This document shows positions 1 to 5,496 of a stretch of DNA of 5,496 bases, piece after piece. A program made the translations under genes and the position numbers. Source of the stretch: a virus. Taxonomy: Duplodnaviria; Heunggongvirae; Uroviricota; Caudoviricetes. Below the pieces are notes generated by a model that did no database searches, had not been told where the DNA came from, and was given only the letters and a program-made list of their open reading frames with translations. The stretch lies in IMG/VR virus record IMGVR_UViG_2713897140_000005, one strand, 5' to 3'. Position 1 is the stretch's first letter. Each line of letters starts with the position of its first letter.

Positions 1-333
1 AATTGCCGTACTCAACGCTTCCTGCGCCGCCAGTAATGCACGGCGTTCCAGGGTATCGAAGATGCAGAGTCGGTGACGCAGCTCGCGCGGAAGAATTGCC
101 AGAACCGCAGGGATCAGTTTCTGAATTTTTTCCCTTTGCGCTTTCGTTTCACCTTTTAACCAACGATGATAGATGTTCTGCTGATTATTCCAGTCCTTGC
201 CTGGTGTCAGAGACAATTCACCTCCCCCCTGGCGCAGATATTCTTCAGTAATTGCGTTAGCGACCCACGCCTGCCCTTTTTCGGCTGCCAGGGCTAACAA
301 CACTGATTCGATGTGCTCATGCCTGATTTTCAT
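1..333 (-). CDS. ydaT: YdaT-like prophage protein (toxin YdaT family); N-terminal 111 codons, 3' end outside the window
   Basis: Found by reading the - strand; absent from the ORF track because it has no stop inside the window. ATG at 333-331, open to position 1, translation MKIRHEHIESVLLALAAEKGQAWVANAITEEYLRQGGGELSLTPGKDWNNQQNIYHRWLKGETKAQREKIQKLIPAVLAILPRELRHRLCIFDTLERRALLAAQEALSTAI. Recognised from memory as the YdaT family of Rac-type prophages. Its start overlaps the stop of the upstream HTH gene (ATGA). Not verifiable without a homology search. Confidence 0.6.
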   Translation of the reverse strand, partial: MKIRHEHIESVLLALAAEKGQAWVANAITEEYLRQGGGELSLTPGKDWNNQQNIYHRWLKGETKAQREKIQKLIPAVLAILPRELRHRLCIFDTLERRALLAAQEALSTAI

Positions 334-572
334 GAATCAACCGCTCCTATGCTGTTTTCGCTATGCTTACCGTCTGGGGGGAATACATCGTCAAGTCCAC
401 AATGAGCGCCAAGCCGATTAAGGGTAGAAACAATTTTTCTGCACTCCTCTAGTCCAGGGGTACGAAAATTTGCTTCGTAATTTGCCAGTCGGCTTTGTAT
501 CCACCCTAACTGAACAGCAAGTTGTCTTTGAGACAGCCCAAGCTGTTTTCGATATGTTGAAATTTTGTTCAT
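330..572 (-). CDS. ydaS: Cro/YdaS-like helix-turn-helix (XRE-type) DNA-binding protein, 80 aa
   Basis: ORF track 330..572 (-). The N-terminal 45 aa (YRKQLGLSQRQLAVQLGWIQSRLANYE) is a typical XRE/Cro HTH. GGAGG Shine-Dalgarno 7 nt upstream of the ATG at 572. Stop TGA (332-330) overlaps the ATG of the YdaT-like gene. Symbol given by synteny (divergent from the repressor, immediately upstream of ydaT), not by sequence identity. Confidence 0.55.
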   Translation of the reverse strand: MNKISTYRKQLGLSQRQLAVQLGWIQSRLANYEANFRTPGLEECRKIVSTLNRLGAHCGLDDVFPPDGKHSENSIGAVDS

Positions 573-668
573 TGAAAACCTCCGATGACAATTTTAAACA
601 CACCTTGTGTTATATAGTCAAGCTGTTTTGTGTTTTATGTAAATCACGATTCGTGATACAAGGATGCA
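573..668. promoter_or_regulatory. Divergent promoter/operator region between the Cro-like (-) and repressor-like (+) genes
   Basis: 96-bp AT-rich spacer between divergent start codons. Palindrome AACAC-N5-GTGTT at 597-611; perfect 15-bp palindrome ATCACGA-T-TCGTGAT at 643-657; direct repeats TTGTGTT(A/T)TAT at 606-616 and 628-638. Candidate - strand promoter: -35 TTGACT (complement of 615-620) and -10 TTTAAA/TAAAAT (complement of about 592-598), with the 597-611 palindrome in its spacer. No convincing + strand -35/-10 pair could be placed. Confidence 0.5.
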
Positions 669-1088
669 ATGGAAAAAGAAAACGAAAAAATTGCCGCTAG
701 TAGGCTCAATGACAAAATTGCAATGCGTCTTAAAGAGCGCAGGCAGAAGCTTGGTTTATCTCAAGGAAAACTTGCTGAAATCTGCGGATGGACGCAATCG
801 CGTATAGGTAACTATGAGGCGGGCAGCAGAAATGTTGGAGTACATGACGCTGTCGTATTGGGAAAGGCACTTGGCATATCTCCTCCTGAGCTCCTCTTTG
901 GAGAACAGGAATCTTCTGAATTGTGGTTAAATGAATCCCAACGAAAACTTCTTGAGTTGTTTAACCAGCTACCGGGCTCAGAACAACAACGAATGATTGA
1001 GCTATTTGAAGTCCGGCTAAAAGAAATCGATGAGTATGTAGAAAAATATTTGAGAGGCAGGATTAAAGATAATCCCCCACCGGAATAA
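669..1088 (+). CDS. racR: XRE-family HTH transcriptional repressor (RacR-like prophage repressor), 139 aa
   Basis: ORF track 669..1088. HTH motif RRQKLGLSQGKLAEICGWTQSRIGNYEAG in the N-terminal half, with a C-terminal extension. AAGGA 5 nt upstream of the ATG. Divergent from the ydaS/ydaT-like pair, as racR is in Rac. Symbol assigned by synteny and family, not verified identity. An internal ATG at 720 is an alternative start. Confidence 0.6.
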   Translation: MEKENEKIAASRLNDKIAMRLKERRQKLGLSQGKLAEICGWTQSRIGNYEAGSRNVGVHDAVVLGKALGISPPELLFGEQESSELWLNESQRKLLELFNQLPGSEQQRMIELFEVRLKEIDEYVEKYLRGRIKDNPPPE

Positions 1089-1118
1089 TGATCTTGCTAT
1101 CACAGTAATATGCCAATC

Positions 1119-1142
1119 AGCCCGCTATCAGCGGGCTTTTTT
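1119..1142 (+). terminator. Rho-independent terminator downstream of the repressor gene
   Basis: Stem AGCCCGC (1119-1125) / GCGGGCT (1131-1137), 5-nt loop TATCA, followed by a T-run to 1142. Lies 30 nt after the repressor stop codon (1086-1088). Confidence 0.6.
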
Positions 1143-1184
1143 GTAGCATCATCATATGACACCCACCATAAAACACATTACGTG

Positions 1185-1213
1185 TTGACATAAGAAAACA
1201 AATTGTGTTTAAT
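1185..1213 (+). promoter_or_regulatory. Sigma70-like promoter (TTGACA-17-TTTAAT) overlapped by operator-like palindromes
   Basis: -35 TTGACA at 1185-1190, 17-bp spacer, -10 TTTAAT at 1208-1213. Imperfect palindromes AACAC-ATTAC-GTGTT (1172-1186) and AAACA-AATTG-TGTTT (1196-1210) overlap the -35 and -10 and resemble the 597-611 site. Confidence 0.4.
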
Positions 1214-1393
1214 AAGCATATCCAAACAACGCCCCACCAGAGAACGGCAGGACAATACCTCGAGTTATCCAGTCACTGAACAGGGCTAAGTAGCCAGCCT
1301 GAGGCATACGAACATGACGGCAGTTGTTGATTGATACAAAGCGCAGTAGATAAAACGTTCCGCCACCCGGCGTTAAGGGGAAATGGGGTCAAC

Positions 1394-1549
1394 ATGAATA
1401 CTATCGATCTTGGCAACAACGAATCTCTGGTATGTGGCGTGTTTCCCAATCAAGACGGCACATTCACCGCCATGACGTATACCAAAAGCAAAACGTTTAA
1501 AACCGAAGCTGGCGCACGTCGTTGGTTGGGAAGACATTCAGGTGAGTAA
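1394..1549 (+). CDS. Small prophage protein, 51 aa (positionally like the tiny ydaF/ydaG ORFs of Rac)
   Basis: The ORF track entry 1331..1549 begins at a TTG. The first ATG is at 1394 (MNTIDLGNNESLVCGVFPNQDGTFTAMTYTKSKTFKTEAGARRWLGRHSGE), with a G-rich stretch 5-9 nt upstream. Stop TAA at 1547-1549 lies 1 nt before the next ATG. Function unknown. Confidence 0.5.
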   Translation: MNTIDLGNNESLVCGVFPNQDGTFTAMTYTKSKTFKTEAGARRWLGRHSGE

Positions 1550-1550
1550 A

Positions 1551-1754
1551 ATGAACGAGACAGAATTAAAACACGTTATCGCTCTACTCCTAGAAGATGC
1601 AAAACGCCTCCAGCAACTGGAGCCAAATGCAGGCACTGGGGCACGCATCTGGCTGGCTAAAGAAGCGCTGGAATCTGGCGATTATGATAGCGAAGAAGCC
1701 TTCTACAAAGCAGAAGGCCGTGCAGGATATTCACCGGGTCTTGGCGGGGTATAA
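1551..1754 (+). CDS. Hypothetical small protein, 67 aa
   Basis: ORF track 1542..1754 starts at a GTG. ATG at 1551 is preceded by AGGTGAG (1540-1546), a good Shine-Dalgarno. Translation MNETELKHVIALLLEDAKRLQQLEPNAGTGARIWLAKEALESGDYDSEEAFYKAEGRAGYSPGLGGV. The 3' end overlaps the convergent 98-aa gene by 24 bp. Confidence 0.4.
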   Translation: MNETELKHVIALLLEDAKRLQQLEPNAGTGARIWLAKEALESGDYDSEEAFYKAEGRAGYSPGLGGV

Positions 1755-2027
1755 ATACCATGCGCATTGACTGAATTCGCAAACAAAAACAGACGCGCGA
1801 TACCCGGATAGTCGGTCTGCATAGTCAGATATCTGGCTGCGAATTTGATAAATATCACCGCCCTTTTCGAAAACATAAGTTCCGTCCGGGAGTTGATTAT
1901 ACGAACCATCTCCATGGGGGATCGTTCTCCTGAATCCTAGTGAGAGCATATATTTATGAAGCCCTTCGTAATCCTCTGGCTCAGCATTATATAGTTCTAC
2001 TCTGGCGAGATACGTTGGCATATTCAT
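1731..2027 (-). CDS. Hypothetical 98-aa protein in the sieB-equivalent position; weak pattern-level resemblance to VapD/Cas2-like small nucleases
   Basis: ORF track 1731..2027 (-), MNMPTYLARVELYNAEPEDYEGLHKYMLSLGF.... AAGGAA lies immediately upstream, so the third-codon ATG at 2021 may be the true start. It is transcribed against the flanking + strand genes. The VapD/Cas2 resemblance (strand YLARVEL, helix ending LSLGF, GDGSY, SVFVCEF) is by eye only. Confidence 0.55.
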   Translation of the reverse strand: MNMPTYLARVELYNAEPEDYEGLHKYMLSLGFRRTIPHGDGSYNQLPDGTYVFEKGGDIYQIRSQISDYADRLSGYRASVFVCEFSQCAWYLYPAKTR

Positions 2028-2215
2028 TTCCTTACTGGTTGTGTGAGAACTTCAGTAAAGATACCACCAAAGCCCGGAGGTGGTGAAATAAAACCGGGCA
2101 CAACACGAAGGCGCATTTCCGGTATTCATAAAGAGTCGGTCTTGTCTGTGAAATTTAAATGGTGGGAGTGCGCTTCCGGTTGTAAATAACGACATTGCTG
2201 TGTGAAGTACCAGTT

Positions 2216-2256
2216 GGCGGCATCGGTTTAATTGCTGGCTGATGTCCGCCCTTTTT
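2216..2256 (+). terminator. Candidate intrinsic terminator (+ strand)
   Basis: GC-rich stem GGCGGCATC (2216-2224) / GATG-t-CCGCC (2241-2250) with one bulged T and a 16-nt loop, followed by CTTTTT (2251-2256). The T-run is on the + strand only. Confidence 0.4.
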
Positions 2257-2257
2257 A

Positions 2258-2412
2258 AAGTGAATTTTGTGATGCGGTGAATGCGGCTAAGCGCACGCGG
2301 CACAGTTAAAAGTCATGTTAGTCCTTATTGTTTTGGGTGGGAAAGCCGACTGTAATTGTTAACTGGTTAACGTCACCTGGAGGCACCAGGCACCGCATCA
2401 CAAAATTCACTT
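2258..2412. repeat. Perfect 22-bp inverted repeat flanking a 111-bp spacer
   Basis: Left arm 2258-2279 AAGTGAATTTTGTGATGCGGTG; right arm 2391-2412 CACCGCATCACAAAATTCACTT is its exact reverse complement. The match stops on both sides (2257/2413 and 2280/2390 do not pair). The spacer contains GTTAAC-TG-GTTAAC (2358-2371) and a weak promoter-like TTGTTT-17-TGTAAT (2328-2356). Confidence 0.85.
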
Positions 2413-2533
2413 CGGTGATGAAAGGAAAGAGAAAATGTTGAATGTAGCTATTGAAAACCAGAACGGGTGGAATTATAGTGCACCTGCACCTCATAAAACG
2501 GGTGCCGGGATTAGCACCCCGAAAGTTACTCGA

Positions 2534-2567
2534 GCGCATAACCGCGCTGAAGCGGTTTTTTTATGCG
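2534..2567 (+). terminator. Candidate intrinsic terminator / attenuator hairpin in the leader upstream of the Rha-family gene
   Basis: Inner stem ACCGC (2541-2545) / GCGGT (2552-2556) with loop GCTGAA, followed by 7 T (2556-2562). Outer complementary arms CGCATAA (2535-2541) / TTATGCG (2561-2567). Confidence 0.45.
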
Positions 2568-2591
2568 TAATGCACAGCCACATTCAAATTA

Positions 2592-2669
2592 TGGTGAGGC
2601 GTGCGGGGCAGCCGCAAGGCTGGCCGGGTTCTCGAGTGACCGGTAGTGCTAACCCTGTGCGTCTCACCA
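2592..2669 (+). other. Structured RNA element (long branched hairpin) in the 5' leader of the Rha-family gene
   Basis: 17-bp stem 2592-2608 / 2653-2669 with 14 Watson-Crick pairs plus 3 G-U pairs that exist only in the + strand RNA (they would be C-A on the - strand). It encloses a CAGCC-GCAA-GGCTG hairpin (2609-2622, GNRA loop) and a CCGG...CCGG hairpin (2624-2643). CTCACC (2663-2668) can alternatively pair with GGTGAG at 2693-2698. Confidence 0.4.
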
Positions 2670-2728
2670 CCCATGAGATTAGCACCTCTGCTGGTGAGTT
2701 AATTAACTTATCACTTGAGGATGTCATT

Positions 2729-3274
2729 ATGGCTACTACCCTTTCTCACCCTGACGTAACCATCGAAAATGGTCGCGCCGTCACTACTTCTATTTCGATT
2801 GCTGAGTTTTTTGGCAAGCAGCATCACCATGTTGTTCAAAAAATAGAATCCCTCGAATGTTCTGAACTATTTTTAACCAGCAACTTTTCGCGGGTTAAAT
2901 TCGAACACCGCGGCAATTCTTATAACGCCTACCAAATCACCAAAAACGGCTTCGTTTTCCTGGTGATGGGCTTCACGGGCAAAAAAGCCGCCACATTCAA
3001 GGAAGCCTACATTGCTGAGTTCGACCGCATGGAGGCCGAACTGCGCCAGAATAACACCCCACCTGCTGACAAGATGATTCCGGGTGATGGTCGCACTCTG
3101 GTTGTTCACTTCGACAAATTCGGCAATGTCGAATTCACCGAAACCGTTCCTGATGGCGCACTGGTCTGTACCCTGGAGACTTTCCGGTTTTATCTGGAAA
3201 AACAGGGCTGGACTCTTGTAAACCGGGGCGCAATTAAAAACATGACCGTAGAGCAGTTGCTTTCCTTAAAATAA
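2729..3274 (+). CDS. Rha-family phage regulatory protein, 181 aa
   Basis: MATTLSHPDVTIENGRAVTTSISIAEFFGKQHHHVVQKIESLE... matches the Rha (Phage_pRha) N-terminal signature, and ...GFVFLVMGFTGKKAATFKEAYIAEFDRME is typical of the family. GAGGA lies 7 nt upstream of the ATG at 2729. The ORF track extends the frame to an ATG at 2435 (279 aa, with an AAGGAAAGAG Shine-Dalgarno), but that extension covers the terminator and hairpin above and is unlike a folded domain, so 2729 is preferred. Confidence 0.7.
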   Translation: MATTLSHPDVTIENGRAVTTSISIAEFFGKQHHHVVQKIESLECSELFLTSNFSRVKFEHRGNSYNAYQITKNGFVFLVMGFTGKKAATFKEAYIAEFDRMEAELRQNNTPPADKMIPGDGRTLVVHFDKFGNVEFTETVPDGALVCTLETFRFYLEKQGWTLVNRGAIKNMTVEQLLSLK

Positions 3275-3284
3275 AAATGGAGCT

Positions 3285-3572
3285 ATGGATATGAACCCCA
3301 TGCTTGATTATTGTTTTACACCTGCCCTCAGGCAGACCATCAGTCATACCGGGATTAAAAAATGGCTGTGGAGAATCAGAAAAATTCTCCAGCAAAAAGG
3401 TGACCTGGATTTAATACAATGTGATTACCATCTCTGCAATAAACAGTTTTTACCTGAAAAAGCTTTTACTGGCGAGCTTATTTATATGCATGGAAACATG
3501 ATTGCCAGAAAGAAACGAAAATATTGCAGTGCAGCTTGTGCCGAAAAAGACAAGATGGCACACGAACTTTAA
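3285..3572 (+). CDS. Cys-rich small protein, putative zinc-binding (C-x4-C ... C-x3-C), 95 aa
   Basis: ORF track 3285..3572. Cys pairs in QCDYHLC and YCSAAC, and a basic KKRK patch. GGAG at 3279-3282 is better spaced for the in-frame ATG at 3291, which may be the true start. Positionally equivalent to the small zinc-binding gene (ydaE) upstream of racC-recE in Rac; no sequence identity claimed. Confidence 0.55.
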   Translation: MDMNPMLDYCFTPALRQTISHTGIKKWLWRIRKILQQKGDLDLIQCDYHLCNKQFLPEKAFTGELIYMHGNMIARKKRKYCSAACAEKDKMAHEL

Positions 3573-3646
3573 TTAACTGAATATTCGAAACTGAATTTAT
3601 GCCAGCAATGGCAGGGATTCACTCAACCTTAAAAAAGGAAACAGCA

Positions 3647-3853
3647 ATGAGCATTATTGAATGTGAAATTGAACTTGATGTTATTAACGATTCTCTCGCC
3701 GAATTTAAATGTGGGAATACATTACATAGTTTCATTCAGATTTCCCAAAAAGAAAACGTCACGGTAATTATTGATGACGGTTACGTTCTGGGAACATTTG
3801 ATTGTTGTGTATGTGCCATTAAAGAAATTGCATTACTCACAGCTCGCATTTAA
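3647..3853 (+). CDS. Hypothetical small protein, 68 aa
   Basis: ORF track 3599..3853. The internal ATG at 3647 is preceded by AAGGAA 6 nt upstream, unlike the 3599 ATG. Translation MSIIECEIELDVINDSLAEFKCGNTLHSFIQISQKENVTVIIDDGYVLGTFDCCVCAIKEIALLTARI. No recognisable family. Confidence 0.5.
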   Translation: MSIIECEIELDVINDSLAEFKCGNTLHSFIQISQKENVTVIIDDGYVLGTFDCCVCAIKEIALLTARI

Positions 3854-3857
3854 GAGG

Positions 3858-3886
3858 CTGACAAGAAATACGGTATCAGTTATCAA
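3858..3886 (+). promoter_or_regulatory. Weak candidate promoter upstream of the RecE-like gene
   Basis: CTGACA (3858-3863), 17-bp spacer, TATCAA (3881-3886) in the 113-bp gap before the ATG at 3967. Hexamers are imperfect. Confidence 0.25.
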
Positions 3887-3966
3887 CGACTGAAAGAACT
3901 CTCTCATATCGCATCATCAGTTCGTTTCTTTTATGCAATCTGAATATGAGTTGAGGTTAAAAAACA

Positions 3967-5376
3967 ATGAGCACCGATAAACAAGTTTACCCACTGTATT
4001 ACGAAGCAAAAAATGACAAAGTAAGAAAACGCCTCGGTATTAAAGGCGGTTTTTACTGGGCTGAAGCGAAAAAATTATCCATTGCCATCTCCCGTGGTGC
4101 TGTTGCGATTGACGATGCTGGCTACGATGAAGATGACTTTAAAAAACCTGTTCGCGTCAATTTGCCCGTTGTTGATGACCTCCCACCAGAAGGCGTGTTT
4201 GATACGGAATTCTGCAACCGTTACGAAAAAGGCGGGGAAGATGGCATCACAATGGTATTTATCGCATCTTCTCCCTCTGTTCAGGACAAACCAGCCAGCA
4301 CTGACAATACCAACGTCAACGGCGAAGACATGACAGAAATTGAGGAGAACATGCTCCTGCCAGTTTCCGGTCAGGAACTGCCCATTCGTTGGCTTGCGCA
4401 ACACGGCAGCGAAAAACCGGTAACGCACGTTTCACGCGACGAACTCCAGGCATTACACATTGCTCGGGATGAAGAACTACCGGCTGTTACTGCTCTGGCT
4501 GTTTCGCATAAAACCAGTCTGCTCGACCCGCTGGAGATTCGCGACCTCCACAAACTCGTGCGTGATACTGACAAAGTTTTCCCTAATCCTGGCAATTCAA
4601 ATCTGGGACTGATGACTGCTTTTTTCGAAGCATATCTGGATGCCAACTACACCGATCGCGGTCTGCTGACAAAAGAGTGGATGAAAGGAAATCGTGTTTC
4701 GCGTATCACTCGCACGGCTTCCGGTGCTAATGCTGGCGGCGGGAACCTCACCGATCGCGGCGAAGGTTTCGTCCACGATCTGACGTCGCTGGCGCGCGAC
4801 GTAGCCACTGGCGTACTGGCCCGTTCAATGGACGTGGATATTTATAATCTTCATCCGGCACACGCTAAACGCATTGAGGAAATTATCACTGAAAATAAAC
4901 CGCCCTTTTCTGTTTTCCGCGACAAATTCATCACCATGCCTGGCGGGATGGATTATTCCCGCGCCATCGTGGTTGCGTCAGTGAAAGAAGCACCGATTGG
5001 TATCGAGGTCATCCCCGCGCACGTCACTGAATATCTGAACAAGGTACTGACTGAAACCGATCATGCCAACCCTGATCCGGAAATCGTGGATATTGCCTGC
5101 GGTCGCTCCTCTGCCCCGATGCCGCAGCGTGTAACAGAAGAAGGAAAACAGGATGATGAAGAAAAACCGCAGCCATCTGGCGCAATGGCAGATGAACAGG
5201 CAACGGCTGAAACAATGGAACCGGATGCAACTGAACATCATCAGAACACGCAGCCGCTGGATGCTCAGTCACAGGTAAATTCTGTTGATGGGGGCGGGTC
5301 AGTACTGCGGGTTCCTTGCCAACCGTGTGTGTGGAGAGAAGCTGCCACAGGTGTACCGAGCTCTGGGGATGGATAA
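3967..5376 (+). CDS. recE: RecE (exodeoxyribonuclease VIII) N-terminal-region homologue, 469-aa ORF; apparently truncated or chimeric, C-terminal nuclease domain not encoded in this frame
   Basis: ORF track 3967..5376, with GAGG 9 nt upstream. Segments such as [50 protein letters not shown] and the acidic [15 protein letters not shown] tract match my recollection of the non-catalytic N-terminal part of Rac RecE (866 aa in K-12). No Walker motif. The last about 28 codons ([28 protein letters not shown]) look like out-of-frame junk. Identity is from memory and needs alignment. Confidence 0.55.
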
Positions 5377-5496
5377 ACCGGAACCAGTGGCGAAGGTGTG
5401 CTATGCACAAATGGTGACGCAGCTCCTGAGTCGTGACCCGTTCGAATGCGTGCTGTGTGGCGGCCGGATGGTATACCGCCGGGCCATCGCGGGACT
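5369..5496 (+). CDS. Cys-rich (zinc-ribbon-like) protein, N-terminal fragment; continues beyond the window
   Basis: Frame is open from 5279 to the window end, so it is not in the ORF track. ATG at 5369 overlaps the RecE-like stop (ATGGATAA); an earlier in-frame ATG at 5288 gives [70 protein letters not shown]-x2-C and further Cys suggest a zinc ribbon. Identity unknown (transposase-like or HNH-like are guesses). Confidence 0.4.

Follow-up and report, generated by a model that had tools for sequence, protein, structure and literature searches.

Two dyads in a prophage repressor/cro intergenic region as probable outer sites of one lambda-style three-site operator

RESULTS

Genes of the control region

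In the window, by which we mean the whole 5,496-nt stretch of DNA that was analyzed, a repressor gene and a cro-like gene diverge from a 96-bp intergenic region (Table 1). The repressor has a 434/P22-type N-terminal helix-turn-helix domain followed by a short helical C-terminal domain and is without a peptidase domain. Its AlphaFold model (mean pLDDT 85.9) consists of an N-terminal bundle of short helices and then two helices, at residues 89–99 and 103–133. Foldseek matched this model to P22 c2, 434 and C.AhdI over the N-terminal helix-turn-helix domain alone, and returned nothing informative for the C-terminal helices. The protein does not have the makeup of a LexA/S24 self-cleaving repressor: Pfam recognizes helix-turn-helix families alone, and the C-terminal part is two helices. 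The helix-turn-helix regions of the repressor and the Cro-like protein are 45% identical, with recognition helices GWTQSRIGNYE and GWIQSRLANYE, respectively.

Table 1. Coordinates of genes, candidate operator sites and promoter elements in the window
Feature	Position	Strand	Sequence or product	Context and basis
ydaT, 5' part	1–333	minus	CII-like regulator	cut by window edge; immediately downstream of cro-like gene
YdaT box	323–340		CTGATT-ttcatg-AATCAA	spans ydaT start codon (333..331); 1 mismatch to TTGATT-N6-AATCAA
cro-like gene	330–572	minus	80 aa	ORF; Pfam HTH_3, E=6.7e-10
PR −10	593–598	minus	TTTAAA	read from sequence; lambda PR −10 register; paralogous to PL −10
OR1	597–611		AACAC-ACCTT-GTGTT	PR spacer and −10; candidate site, from sequence and conservation
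PR −35	616–621	minus	TTGACT (AGTCAA on plus)	read from sequence; position as lambda PR −35
OR2	620–634		AAGCT-GTTTT-GTGTT	right half consensus, left half degenerate; overlaps PR −35; centre −42 from repressor ATG
OR3	643–657		ATCAC-GATTC-GTGAT	overlaps −10 region of repressor promoter; centre −19 from ATG
PRM extended −10, putative	654–662	plus	TG-a-TACAAG	6 nt, then ATG 669
repressor gene	669–1088	plus	139 aa	Pfam HTH_3 only
intrinsic terminator	1119–1143	plus	8-bp stem, 6 GC pairs, then T run	after repressor gene
OL2	1172–1186		AACAC-ATTAC-GTGTT	right half overlaps PL −35
PL −35	1185–1190	plus	TTGACA	read from sequence; equivalent to lambda PL and Qin dicBp
OL1	1195–1209		AAAAC-AAATT-GTGTT	1 mismatch; PL spacer and −10; 23 bp from OL2
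PL −10	1208–1213	plus	TTTAAT	read from sequence; 17 nt after TTGACA

An earlier note on this DNA had called the two proteins RacR-like and YdaS-like. As statements of homology these labels are wrong, since neither protein has detectable similarity to RacR, YdaS or DicC; BLASTP of the repressor against RacR gave E=2.1, the Cro analogue gave no alignment with YdaS, and the two do not belong with the RacR/YdaS pair. On profile evidence the repressor is a distant homologue of DicA. The NCBIfam DicA model NF007257 matches residues 15–133 with 57.3 bits (E=1.4e-15), below the curated 101-bit cut-off, and by this measure the protein is a homologue outside the curated DicA subfamily.

The ydaT product matches Pfam YdaT_toxin (E=1e-10), shares 95% identity with the Rac YdaT protein of K-12 and is annotated as ydaT in NZ_CP119441.1. 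The YdaT box at its start codon has the same position as the boxes footprinted in CP-933P (PMC9986795) and Rac (PMC11879457), and it recurs in 63 out of 80 viral-contig loci that are close relatives; phage Evi has it too. It is probably the YdaT activation site for a PRE-like rightward promoter, and not part of the dyads described below. A literature search by the accessions of the module proteins found nothing, and the published work on DicA/DicC of O157:H7 (PMC6915034) concerns a different paralogue, judging by its primer sequences.

Candidate operator sites in the intergenic region

Two dyads had been noticed in the intergenic region, and both are where they were said to be. The first (OR1) fills the 17-nt spacer of the leftward promoter and touches its −10; the second (OR3), ATCACGA-T-TCGTGAT, is a 15-bp palindrome without mismatch that lies upstream of AAGGA (660–664), a possible repressor ribosome-binding site, and ends 11 nt 5' of the ATG. 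The flanking direct repeats are also present (TTGTGTTATAT at 605–615 and TTGTGTTTTAT at 628–638), but they had been placed 22 bp apart, whereas the distance is 23 bp from start to start, with 12 bp between them. These repeats are the right half-sites of OR1 and OR2.

OR1 and OR3 differ at one symmetric position (AACAC versus ATCAC) and have the CAC-N5-GTG core in common, with 8 of the 10 half-site bases equal. They are 46 bp apart, and a half-degenerate third site, OR2, lies exactly midway, so that the site starts at 597, 620 and 643 follow a 23-bp period. Three related dyad sites about two helical turns apart, as in a tripartite operator, are therefore present, OR1 and OR3 as perfect dyads and OR2 with its right half only. 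Compared base by base, the two dyads appear as variants of one 15-bp family, A(A/T)CAC-N5-GTG(T/A)T, not as two kinds of site. The left half of OR2 (AAGCT) is a poor match to the consensus, and occupancy of OR2 would therefore depend on cooperativity.

PR reads on the minus strand as TTGACT (621..616), a 17-nt spacer and TTTAAA (598..593), followed by GGAGG 6–7 nt upstream of the cro-like ATG at 572. The candidate PR hexamers overlap OR1 and OR2 and the putative PRM hexamer overlaps OR3, at positions like those in lambda. None of PR, PRM and PL was called by a scanner for consensus promoters, whose output was just two implausible minus-strand sites. It missed TTTAAA, TTTAAT and TACAAG because its rule demands a second hexamer with A as its second and T as its sixth base, and the promoters were therefore read by eye and by homology.

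The same type of site recurs downstream of the repressor gene

The operator type of the intergenic region is repeated at a second early promoter, PL, where OL2 and OL1 are arranged around TTGACA-17-TTTAAT. The two promoter modules, PR and PL, are paralogous and can be aligned ungapped with all elements in register, and PL aligns likewise with lambda PL; the sequence GTGTTGACATAA at OL2/PL is identical in lambda OL2/PL. The PL −10 is conserved as GTGTTTAAT in Salmonella relatives. A conserved leader between PL and ydfA was checked for structure and showed little covariation. The earlier note had missed the copies at 1172–1186 and 1195–1209, as well as the exact 23-bp period.

AACAC-N5-GTGTT, with at most one mismatch, is found three times in the window (597, 1172 and 1195) against 0.24 expected, and none of 200 shuffles reached three. 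In the 11.3-kb locus AWCAC-N5-GTGWT has four matches in total, namely OR1, OR3, OL2 and OL1, all of them inside the two control regions. The palindrome at 643–657 is the window's only 7-1-7 palindrome. The expectation of a perfect 15-bp palindrome in the 96-bp intergenic region is about 0.007.

Conservation of the sites

The close set of homologous loci comprised 35 distinct intergenic variants from 83 E. coli and Salmonella loci. Across these 35 variants none of the 25 OR half-site columns varies, compared with 31 of 54 other columns (p=1.6e-7); for OL the corresponding figures are 2 of 20 and 36 of 61 (p=1.8e-4). The half-sites of OR1 and OR3 and the right half of OR2 are invariant, while the central 5 bp of the sites and the spacers vary freely, the centre of OL2 showing all four bases. 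In a broader collection, CAC-N5-GTG is present at both OR1 and OR3 in 105 of 105 distinct intergenic regions, with the OR3 core always at −24 or −25 from the ATG, although many of these regions are kin by descent, so that there are fewer independent events than the counts suggest. The displayed homologous loci retain TTGAC at the PR −35 position, and the OR2 counterpart is a full AACAC-N5-GTTTT in L004 and AACAC-N5-GGGTT in L007. The dyads are thus conserved in related prophages, as the earlier note had proposed to check, and the pattern supports both as operator candidates under strong purifying selection.

A different assignment of the palindrome at 643–657 is that it serves a third regulator (YdaT, which is CII-like, or else a factor of the host) and stands outside the repressor/Cro operator set. 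The 95% identical YdaT of Rac binds the racR–ydaS intergenic region and lowers racR expression (PMC11879457), and AATCAC and GTGATA resemble the halves of a YdaT box, with a three-mismatch match to the box at 630–647. However, three-mismatch matches occur at chance level (7 versus 4.6 expected), the OR3 half-sites are oriented opposite to TGATT-N6-AATCA, a near-perfect box already occupies the expected place at 323–340, and both the position and the core of OR3 are kept in loci that gave no hit in the search for YdaT boxes. We consider a third regulator very unlikely, and rejected YdaT binding to the palindrome, for which the chance-level match was the sole candidate.

Co-variation of sites and recognition helices

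The outer bases of the half-sites change together with the recognition helices of the two proteins that would read them. Recognition helix GW(A/T/V)QSRIGNYE pairs with AACAC..GTGTT, GWS..SR.ANYE with TTCAC..GTGAA, and GWATASRVGNYE with G(A/T)CAC..GTG(T/A)C. The Cro helix and the OL sites change in step with the repressor helix, as in L006, where S is replaced by P in both proteins, and in those homologous loci that include the OL region, the OL sites are of the half-site type proper to the locus. A published rule makes the adenine of operator base pair 2 the partner of a Gln in the first position of the helix (PMC6649833), and the co-variation of helix and half-site seen among these loci fits it.

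The earlier note had taken the two dyads to suggest two kinds of operator, one per regulator. On such a model AACAC..GTGTT, for example, would be read by the repressor alone, and ATCAC..GTGAT by the Cro-like protein alone. In its favour, the A/T difference affects both half-sites symmetrically and is the same in all 35 variants, the ATCAC..GTGAT form occurs once whereas the AACAC form occurs at OR1, OL2 and OL1, and lambda Cro contacts base pair 3 (PMC6649833). It is difficult to reconcile with the nearly identical recognition helices of the two proteins, with the core, spacing and period that the sites have in common, with the AACAC form being present twice at the downstream early promoter, or with the joint change of both helices and all sites in other lineages. 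Moreover, both proteins bind all sites in lambda and in CP-933P (PMC8630535). We regard separate operator types as unlikely, and read the dyads as members of a single set.

The T at half-site position 2 of OR3 is nonetheless invariant within its clade, which shows that OR1 and OR3 differ in some aspect of their function. Sister lineages have the same left half in OR3 as in OR1 (AACAC or TTCAC), whereas the right half of OR3 is always GTG(G/A)T, as the overlapping −10 demands. Much of the distinctness of OR3 is therefore promoter constraint.

The repressor promoter

In the repressor promoter, the TG of an extended −10 appears to come from the right half of OR3. All 105 intergenic regions have a TA-initial hexamer whose first base is the final base of OR3, and between this hexamer and the ATG there are 6 nt (94 regions) or 7 nt (11 regions). 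A usable Shine-Dalgarno sequence precedes 3 of 29 repressor genes, compared with 24 of 27 cro genes. The same geometry is seen in lambda (TAGATT+TAACGT+ATG) and in the PaaR2 region of phage Evi (GATAAT+TACCAC+ATG). It is experimentally established that lambda cI mRNA is leaderless. In CP-933P, where the −10 hexamer is likewise followed by 6 nt and the ATG, 5'RACE mapped the PaaR2 start as leaderless (PMC8630535). Together these observations suggest that the repressor mRNA is leaderless, starting at the ATG. The hexamer TACAAG is without the usually critical −7 T, and in the lineage studied here AAGGA stands 4 nt ahead of the repressor ATG, so that a leadered mRNA is possible in this lineage.

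Two readings that assign the dyads no operator function can be weighed at this point. In one, the palindrome is an RNA hairpin in the repressor 5' leader that acts in translational control or as a terminator; a 5-bp stem can indeed form, but the fold is weak (−5.8 kcal/mol, z=−1.07, with 30 of 200 shuffles folding equally well or better), homologues do not preserve the complementarity of the central bases, and a leaderless mRNA made from the maintenance promoter would not include the palindrome. In the other, the dyads are chance occurrences in AT-rich intergenic DNA. One perfect 15-bp palindrome is expected about one time in three in 5.5 kb (P about 0.33), and the palindrome taken on its own is unremarkable; it is the conservation and the recurrence statistics that exclude chance. 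We judge this pair of readings extremely improbable, and proceed with the dyads as operator sites.

Comparison with known systems

A close parallel in DNA layout is lambda. In both systems the repressor and cro genes diverge about 100 bp apart and are separated by three sites with a 23–24-bp period; the centres of OR3, OR2 and OR1 are at −19, −42 and −66 from the cI ATG in lambda, as annotated, and at −19, −42 and −65 here. The PR −35 (AGTCAA) and −10 are in the same register, and in both cases OR3 abuts the −10 hexamer of PRM (putative here), with 6 nt between this hexamer and the ATG. Lambda also has the same outer half-site as the sites here, its consensus being ATCAC-N5-GTGAT and its OR2 being AACAC-N5-GTGTT. 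An ungapped, ATG-anchored alignment with lambda OR gives 38 identities in 75 positions (P about 5e-5 by a shuffle control). This comparison was used in place of a MAFFT alignment that slipped by one operator, the sites being repeats. Unlike lambda, the system has operator centres that are AT-rich and not CCGC, two recognizable OL sites and YdaT in the place of CII. Its Cro-like protein belongs to the HTH_3 family, is all-helical and is akin to the repressor of its own system, in contrast to the fold of lambda Cro, and its repressor is without an S24 peptidase domain, so that RecA-stimulated self-cleavage is not expected. The switch would work like that of lambda, yet its repressor is not of the cI/LexA type.

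The repressor PaaR2 of CP-933P, a prophage of E. coli O157:H7, is, like the one described here, short and non-cleavable and has the C-terminal motif LLxxFxxLPxxEQ (83.6% probability in a profile comparison). The CP-933P intergenic region is of similar length (97 bp), and a YdaT box lies at the cro/ydaT junction in both (PMC9986795). PaaR2 and YdaS give overlapping footprints in this region and bind the same sites with opposite preference, YdaS preferring the PRM side (PMC8630535). CP-933P differs in its DNA-binding domains, in its half-site (GTTTAGTAA), in having four reported repeats compared with three here, in using as its Cro analogue a member of the YdaS family, which is unrelated to the Cro-like protein, and in carrying a toxin–antitoxin pair after the repressor gene.

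DicA of the Qin prophage (E. coli K-12) is a full-length homologue of the repressor (29% identity, 98.9% profile-comparison probability), and the order of the cro analogue, repressor, terminator, early promoter and ydfA (DUF1391) is the same in both. DicA binds the Oc site and forms a bistable switch with DicC (PMC3441716, PMC10448788). Operator variants in Qin also differ by a symmetric single base, TTAGT-N4-ACTAA versus TTAGC-N4-GCTAA. However, DicC is unrelated to the Cro-like protein, and operator sequence and spacing differ, Oc being TTGTTAGTCATAACTAACAA (PMC3441716).

The repressors of mEp213 and VT1-Sakai belong to the same helix-turn-helix family (N-terminal domain identities of 59% with mEp213 cI and 49% with VT1-Sakai), and the Cro-like protein belongs to the same Cro family (62% identical to Cro of phage VT1-Sakai). 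The mEp213 intergenic region has three clear CAC-N5-GTG-type sites with a 23–24-bp period; sites of this type are also present in that of VT1-Sakai, whose record annotates three putative operators with a 24-bp period. In these two repressors the C-terminal domain is of the cleavable LexA type, whereas here a short DicA-like helical domain takes its place.

The prophage backbone is that of Rac, with YdaE and RecE family genes in the record annotation in addition to YdaT. Rac has the same divergent layout and the same YdaT box near the ydaT start, but RacR and YdaS are not detectably similar to the repressor and the Cro-like protein. This is a Rac-type prophage that has exchanged its RacR/YdaS immunity module.

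DISCUSSION

The simplest account of these observations, and one that we hold to be probably correct, is that the two dyads are OR1 and OR3 of one lambda-style three-site operator that serves a prophage repressor/Cro switch. The idea of a control region for a divergent repressor/Cro-type genetic switch holds, and both dyads are conserved operator candidates; what falls away is the division of the dyads between the two regulators. Sequence comparison covers the sites, their spacing and conservation, their co-variation with both proteins and the base-for-base match to lambda OR and PL, and from the known systems we infer binding order, activation, cooperativity and transcription starts.

By analogy with lambda and CP-933P, repressor dimers would fill OR1/OR2 and OL1/OL2 and so keep cro and the early genes off. 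Repressor bound at OR2, centred at −42, may also stimulate its own weak promoter, from which the mRNA probably starts at the repressor ATG. The Cro-like protein would read the same sites and act first at OR3 to turn the repressor gene off, and high levels of repressor could likewise turn it off. The PL module, downstream of the repressor terminator, would drive the rightward early operon from ydfA onwards. On this model the predicted transcription starts are A669 on the plus strand for the repressor, about 584–588 on the minus strand for PR and about 1220 for PL.

It is background to this model that in lambda one set of sites serves both repressor and Cro, whose preferences among these sites are opposite. 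Here, the near-identical helices and their joint co-variation with the sites provide indirect support for the view that the repressor and the Cro-like protein share a site specificity. The symmetric T-for-A change in OR3, at the equivalent of lambda base pair 3, probably tunes relative affinity and does not create a second specificity. It may well set the preference between repressor and Cro, in which case a weaker form of the earlier note's idea survives. A stronger version is that OR3 is specialized, the base-pair-3 code giving the Cro-like protein first call on it or a near-exclusive site while the right half doubles as the TG of a leaderless −10, a design that would be common to more than 100 enterobacterial prophage and phage loci with short non-cleavable repressors; we regard this as conceivable but rather doubtful.

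The system is a textbook switch, ordinary in kind if unusually clean, and introduces no new principle. About 150 complete E. coli genomes carry this immunity type, among them O157, O145, O121, O111 and O103 strains (Sakai and EDL933 are absent among the best 60 records listed), and it also occurs in Salmonella prophages. In the one annotated genome record examined the operator and promoter elements are unmarked, and the value of the analysis lies mainly in annotation, as it provides an operator code, promoters and a probable leaderless start for this immunity type. The combination of a DNA layout that matches lambda base for base with a short, non-cleavable relative of DicA as repressor predicts immunity relationships between co-resident prophages, and induction via an antirepressor and not via RecA-stimulated cleavage; a candidate for inactivating the repressor is the Rha-family protein encoded at 2732–3274, downstream of the C4/isrK RNA elements. 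It also predicts a simple system in which to study how one symmetric base change may divide two helix-turn-helix proteins, themselves nearly identical, between the sites that they share.

Gene content and origin of the locus

The source of the window is a Rac-type prophage, and bases 1–5290 are 100% identical to E. coli O121 NZ_CP119441.1. The encoded YdaT is 95% identical to YdaT of K-12 Rac, whereas no similarity to RacR, YdaS or DicC is detectable in the adjacent Cro-like protein and repressor. Compared with K-12 Rac, window 1–1100 thus reads as a mosaic immunity exchange, with a Rac-like YdaT beside Cro-like and repressor genes unrelated to YdaS/RacR; recombination must have joined the two parts close to where cro meets ydaT. 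The repressor is homologous to DicA over its full length, though distantly (29% identity, 98.9% profile-comparison probability), and scores 57 bits on the NCBIfam DicA model, under the 101-bit cut-off. In its predicted structure, two C-terminal helices follow a 434/P22-type helix-turn-helix domain and a peptidase domain is absent; over the N-terminal domain, identity to cI of phage mEp213, a cleavable repressor, is 59%. Between the Cro-like protein and VT1-Sakai Cro, identity is 62%. The last 206 bases (5291–5496, within a recE-like ORF) lie outside all best genome matches, which end at 5290, where recE is annotated as truncated in the closest record; the boundary is therefore a rearrangement joint.

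Features of the window, with lambda-style names for sites and promoters
Feature	Position	Strand	Remarks
ydaT	1-333	minus	
YdaT box	323-340		CTGATT-ttcatg-AATCAA, near-perfect; across ydaT start codon
Cro-like gene	330-572	minus	80 aa, HTH_3
Possible PRE-like -10	361-366	plus	TATGCT; putative promoter
PR -10 (candidate)	598..593	minus	TTTAAA
PR -35 (candidate)	621..616	minus	TTGACT
OR1	597-611		AACAC-ACCTT-GTGTT
OR2	620-634		AAGCT-GTTTT-GTGTT
OR3	643-657		ATCACGA-T-TCGTGAT
PRM -10 (candidate)	657-662	plus	TACAAG
Repressor gene	669-1088	plus	139 aa, HTH_3
Terminator	1119-1137		after repressor gene
OL2	1172-1186		perfect AACAC-N5-GTGTT
OL1	1195-1209		one mismatch
Untranslated leader	1236-1393		between PL and ydfA
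DicF, sub-threshold	2201-2251		28.6 bits (gathering score 48)
STnc100, sub-threshold	2263-2404		34.3 bits (gathering score 47)
isrK	2486-2562		68.5 bits
C4 antisense RNA	2587-2674		78.6 bits
Rha-family gene	2732-3274		
ydfA/DUF1391, ydaE, recE			further genes

One operator family with five sites

The earlier note had suggested that the dyads now called OR1 and OR3 serve two different regulators in a genetic switch. Both are present where it placed them. A 15-bp palindrome such as OR3 is not rare in the window as a whole (P ~0.33), but for the 96-bp intergenic region the expected number is only ~0.007. The OR1 pattern AACAC-N5-GTGTT recurs at OL2 and OL1, just past the repressor terminator, and three matches were reached in 0/200 shuffles. 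OR3 departs from this pattern solely in that A is replaced by T, symmetrically, at base two of both half-sites, and the merged pattern AWCAC-N5-GTGWT has four matches across the 11.3-kb locus, all inside the two control regions. Sites in each region start at a constant 23-bp spacing, with only the right half of OR2 being good. The direct repeats TTGTGTT(A/T)TAT (605–615 and 628–638), which do exist but are spaced 23 rather than 22 bp start to start, are therefore the right halves of OR1 and OR2. On sequence grounds, the two dyads are members of one operator family; the switch stands, as a further example of a well-known kind, but with five sites of one family in place of two site types. Separately, an exact 10-nt direct repeat, AAGCTGTTTT, occurs at 540–549 (inside the cro-like gene) and 620–629 (OR2 left half and centre); a rough estimate of the number expected for 161 bp is ~0.01, and conservation of the repeat across variants is not strong.

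OR1 does occupy the spacer (17 nt) of a plausible leftward promoter, which is followed by GGAGG and an ATG at 572 as plausible ribosome-binding site and start. Read on the minus strand, this module aligns without gaps to the rightward module (1166–1226), and in both the distal site covers the -35 (TTGAC) while the proximal site covers the spacer and -10. The layout is that of lambda: going upstream from the cI ATG, the centres of OR3, OR2 and OR1 are reached at 19, 42 and 66 bp there, and at 19, 42 and 65 bp from the repressor ATG here. As 15-mers, the lambda consensus operator (ATCAC-N5-GTGAT) and lambda OR2 (AACAC-N5-GTGTT) show the two outer forms found in the window. When the two regions are aligned without gaps from the repressor ATG, 38/75 positions are identical (shuffle mean 19.8, P ~5e-5), including AGTCAA (PR -35), GTGTT (OR2) and GTGATA (OR3), and GTGTTGACATAA is common to the window and lambda OL2/PL.

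Conservation and recognition of the sites

The dyads are conserved in related prophages, a check the earlier note had proposed. Among 83 closely related E. coli and Salmonella prophage loci, which yield 35 distinct intergenic sequences, 0/25 half-site columns vary compared with 31/54 other columns (Fisher p=1.6e-7), changes falling in the spacers and the 5-bp centres of OR1 and OR3. The OL values are 2/20 and 36/61 (p=1.8e-4). A wider set adds distant homologues (repressors 57–68% identical) from Citrobacter, Klebsiella, Serratia, Enterobacter, Kosakonia and viral contigs; here CAC-N5-GTG is found at the OR1 and OR3 positions in 105/105 distinct intergenic regions, and OR3 is always at -24 (94 regions) or -25 (11 regions) relative to the repressor ATG.

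The outer half-site bases follow the recognition helix: GW(A/T/V)QSRIGNYE accompanies AACAC..GTGTT, GWS..SR.ANYE accompanies TTCAC..GTGAA, and GWATASRVGNYE accompanies G(A/T)CAC..GTG(T/A)C, and the OL sites at each locus are of that locus's own type. Gln at helix position one goes with adenine at the outermost half-site base, in agreement with the published rule that Gln H1 pairs with Ade +2 (PMC6649833). Cro helices change in parallel with repressor helices and sites; one distant locus (L006) has Pro in both proteins where others carry Ser. For the pair encoded in the window, identity between the helix-turn-helix regions is 45%, and the recognition helices read GWTQSRIGNYE (repressor) and GWIQSRLANYE (Cro-like protein). 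Together, these observations argue that both proteins read one common set of sites. Strict specificity, with one dyad per regulator, is disfavoured, because the proteins share helices, the sites share core and period, and the overlapping -10 forces much of the distinctness of OR3. It is also unlikely that YdaT binds the OR3 palindrome: the match to its box within the intergenic region is at chance level, whereas a near-perfect box spans the ydaT start codon, at the position equivalent to that footprinted for YdaT of Rac and CP-933P. The possible PRE-like -10 lies ~41 bp from the centre of this box.

A second group of repressors (genome loci L010–L021) has in common with the window repressor only the C-terminal LLxLFxQLPxxEQ...RLKEIDxYV domain; the helix-turn-helix domain differs, Cro is YdaS-type and the dyads are GTAAAC-N5-GTTTAC. 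The layout of -10-like hexamer, 6 nt and ATG is kept in 8/11 displayed loci. Domain shuffling has taken place over a conserved operator scaffold.

A candidate repressor promoter

The right half of OR3, GTGAT, provides a TG two bases ahead of TACAAG, and 6 nt separate that hexamer from the repressor ATG; TG and TACAAG would form the -10 of the repressor's own promoter. In 105/105 intergenic regions, a TAnnnn hexamer begins at the last base of OR3, with 6 or 7 nt before the ATG. Lambda has TAGATT+TAACGT+ATG and the PaaR2 region of phage Evi GATAAT+TACCAC+ATG; PaaR2 mRNA is leaderless by 5'RACE and N-terminal sequencing (PMC8630535). A Shine-Dalgarno 4-mer at usable spacing is found in 3/29 representative repressor genes but 24/27 cro genes. 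Because the window repressor is among the three (AAGGA) and its hexamer lacks T at -7, we favour a leaderless start in its lineage only by a modest degree. The palindrome could instead act as an RNA hairpin, but this alternative is weak, as is the hairpin itself, which is not conserved. For mEp213 cI, the annotated start (L269 898–906; MRMNRTE...) probably lies two codons upstream of the true one; with the second ATG as start, OR3 is again separated from the ATG by 11 nt, with TATAAA as -10.

Proposed mechanism

In CP-933P, the footprints of both regulators overlap and YdaS favours the PRM side (PMC8630535), and in the bistable Qin switch DicA activates its own gene and represses dicC and dicBp (PMC3441716, PMC10448788). 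By analogy with these systems and lambda, repressor on OR1/OR2 and OL1/OL2 would silence cro-ydaT and the ydfA operon, and repressor bound at OR2 (centre -42) may also activate transcription from its own promoter. Binding of the Cro-like protein or excess repressor to OR3 would turn the repressor promoter off. Induction probably needs an antirepressor, since the repressor lacks a cleavage domain. Within 2473–2674, upstream of the Rha-family gene, Rfam detects isrK, C4 antisense RNA and a sub-threshold c4 a1b1 target. This region resembles P1 immI-type antirepressor control, which would fit a non-cleavable repressor.

The long leader upstream of ydfA has no Rfam match and a weakly supported consensus structure; it contains blocks (AGTAGC..GGCATACGAA, GCGCAG.AG and CGTTCCGCC..GGCG) conserved across distant loci (L002, L004, L006, L009 and L103). 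Downstream of the ydfA-like genes, the sub-threshold Rfam matches to DicF and STnc100 fall within untranslated sequence, which may represent a diverged DicF-like sRNA.
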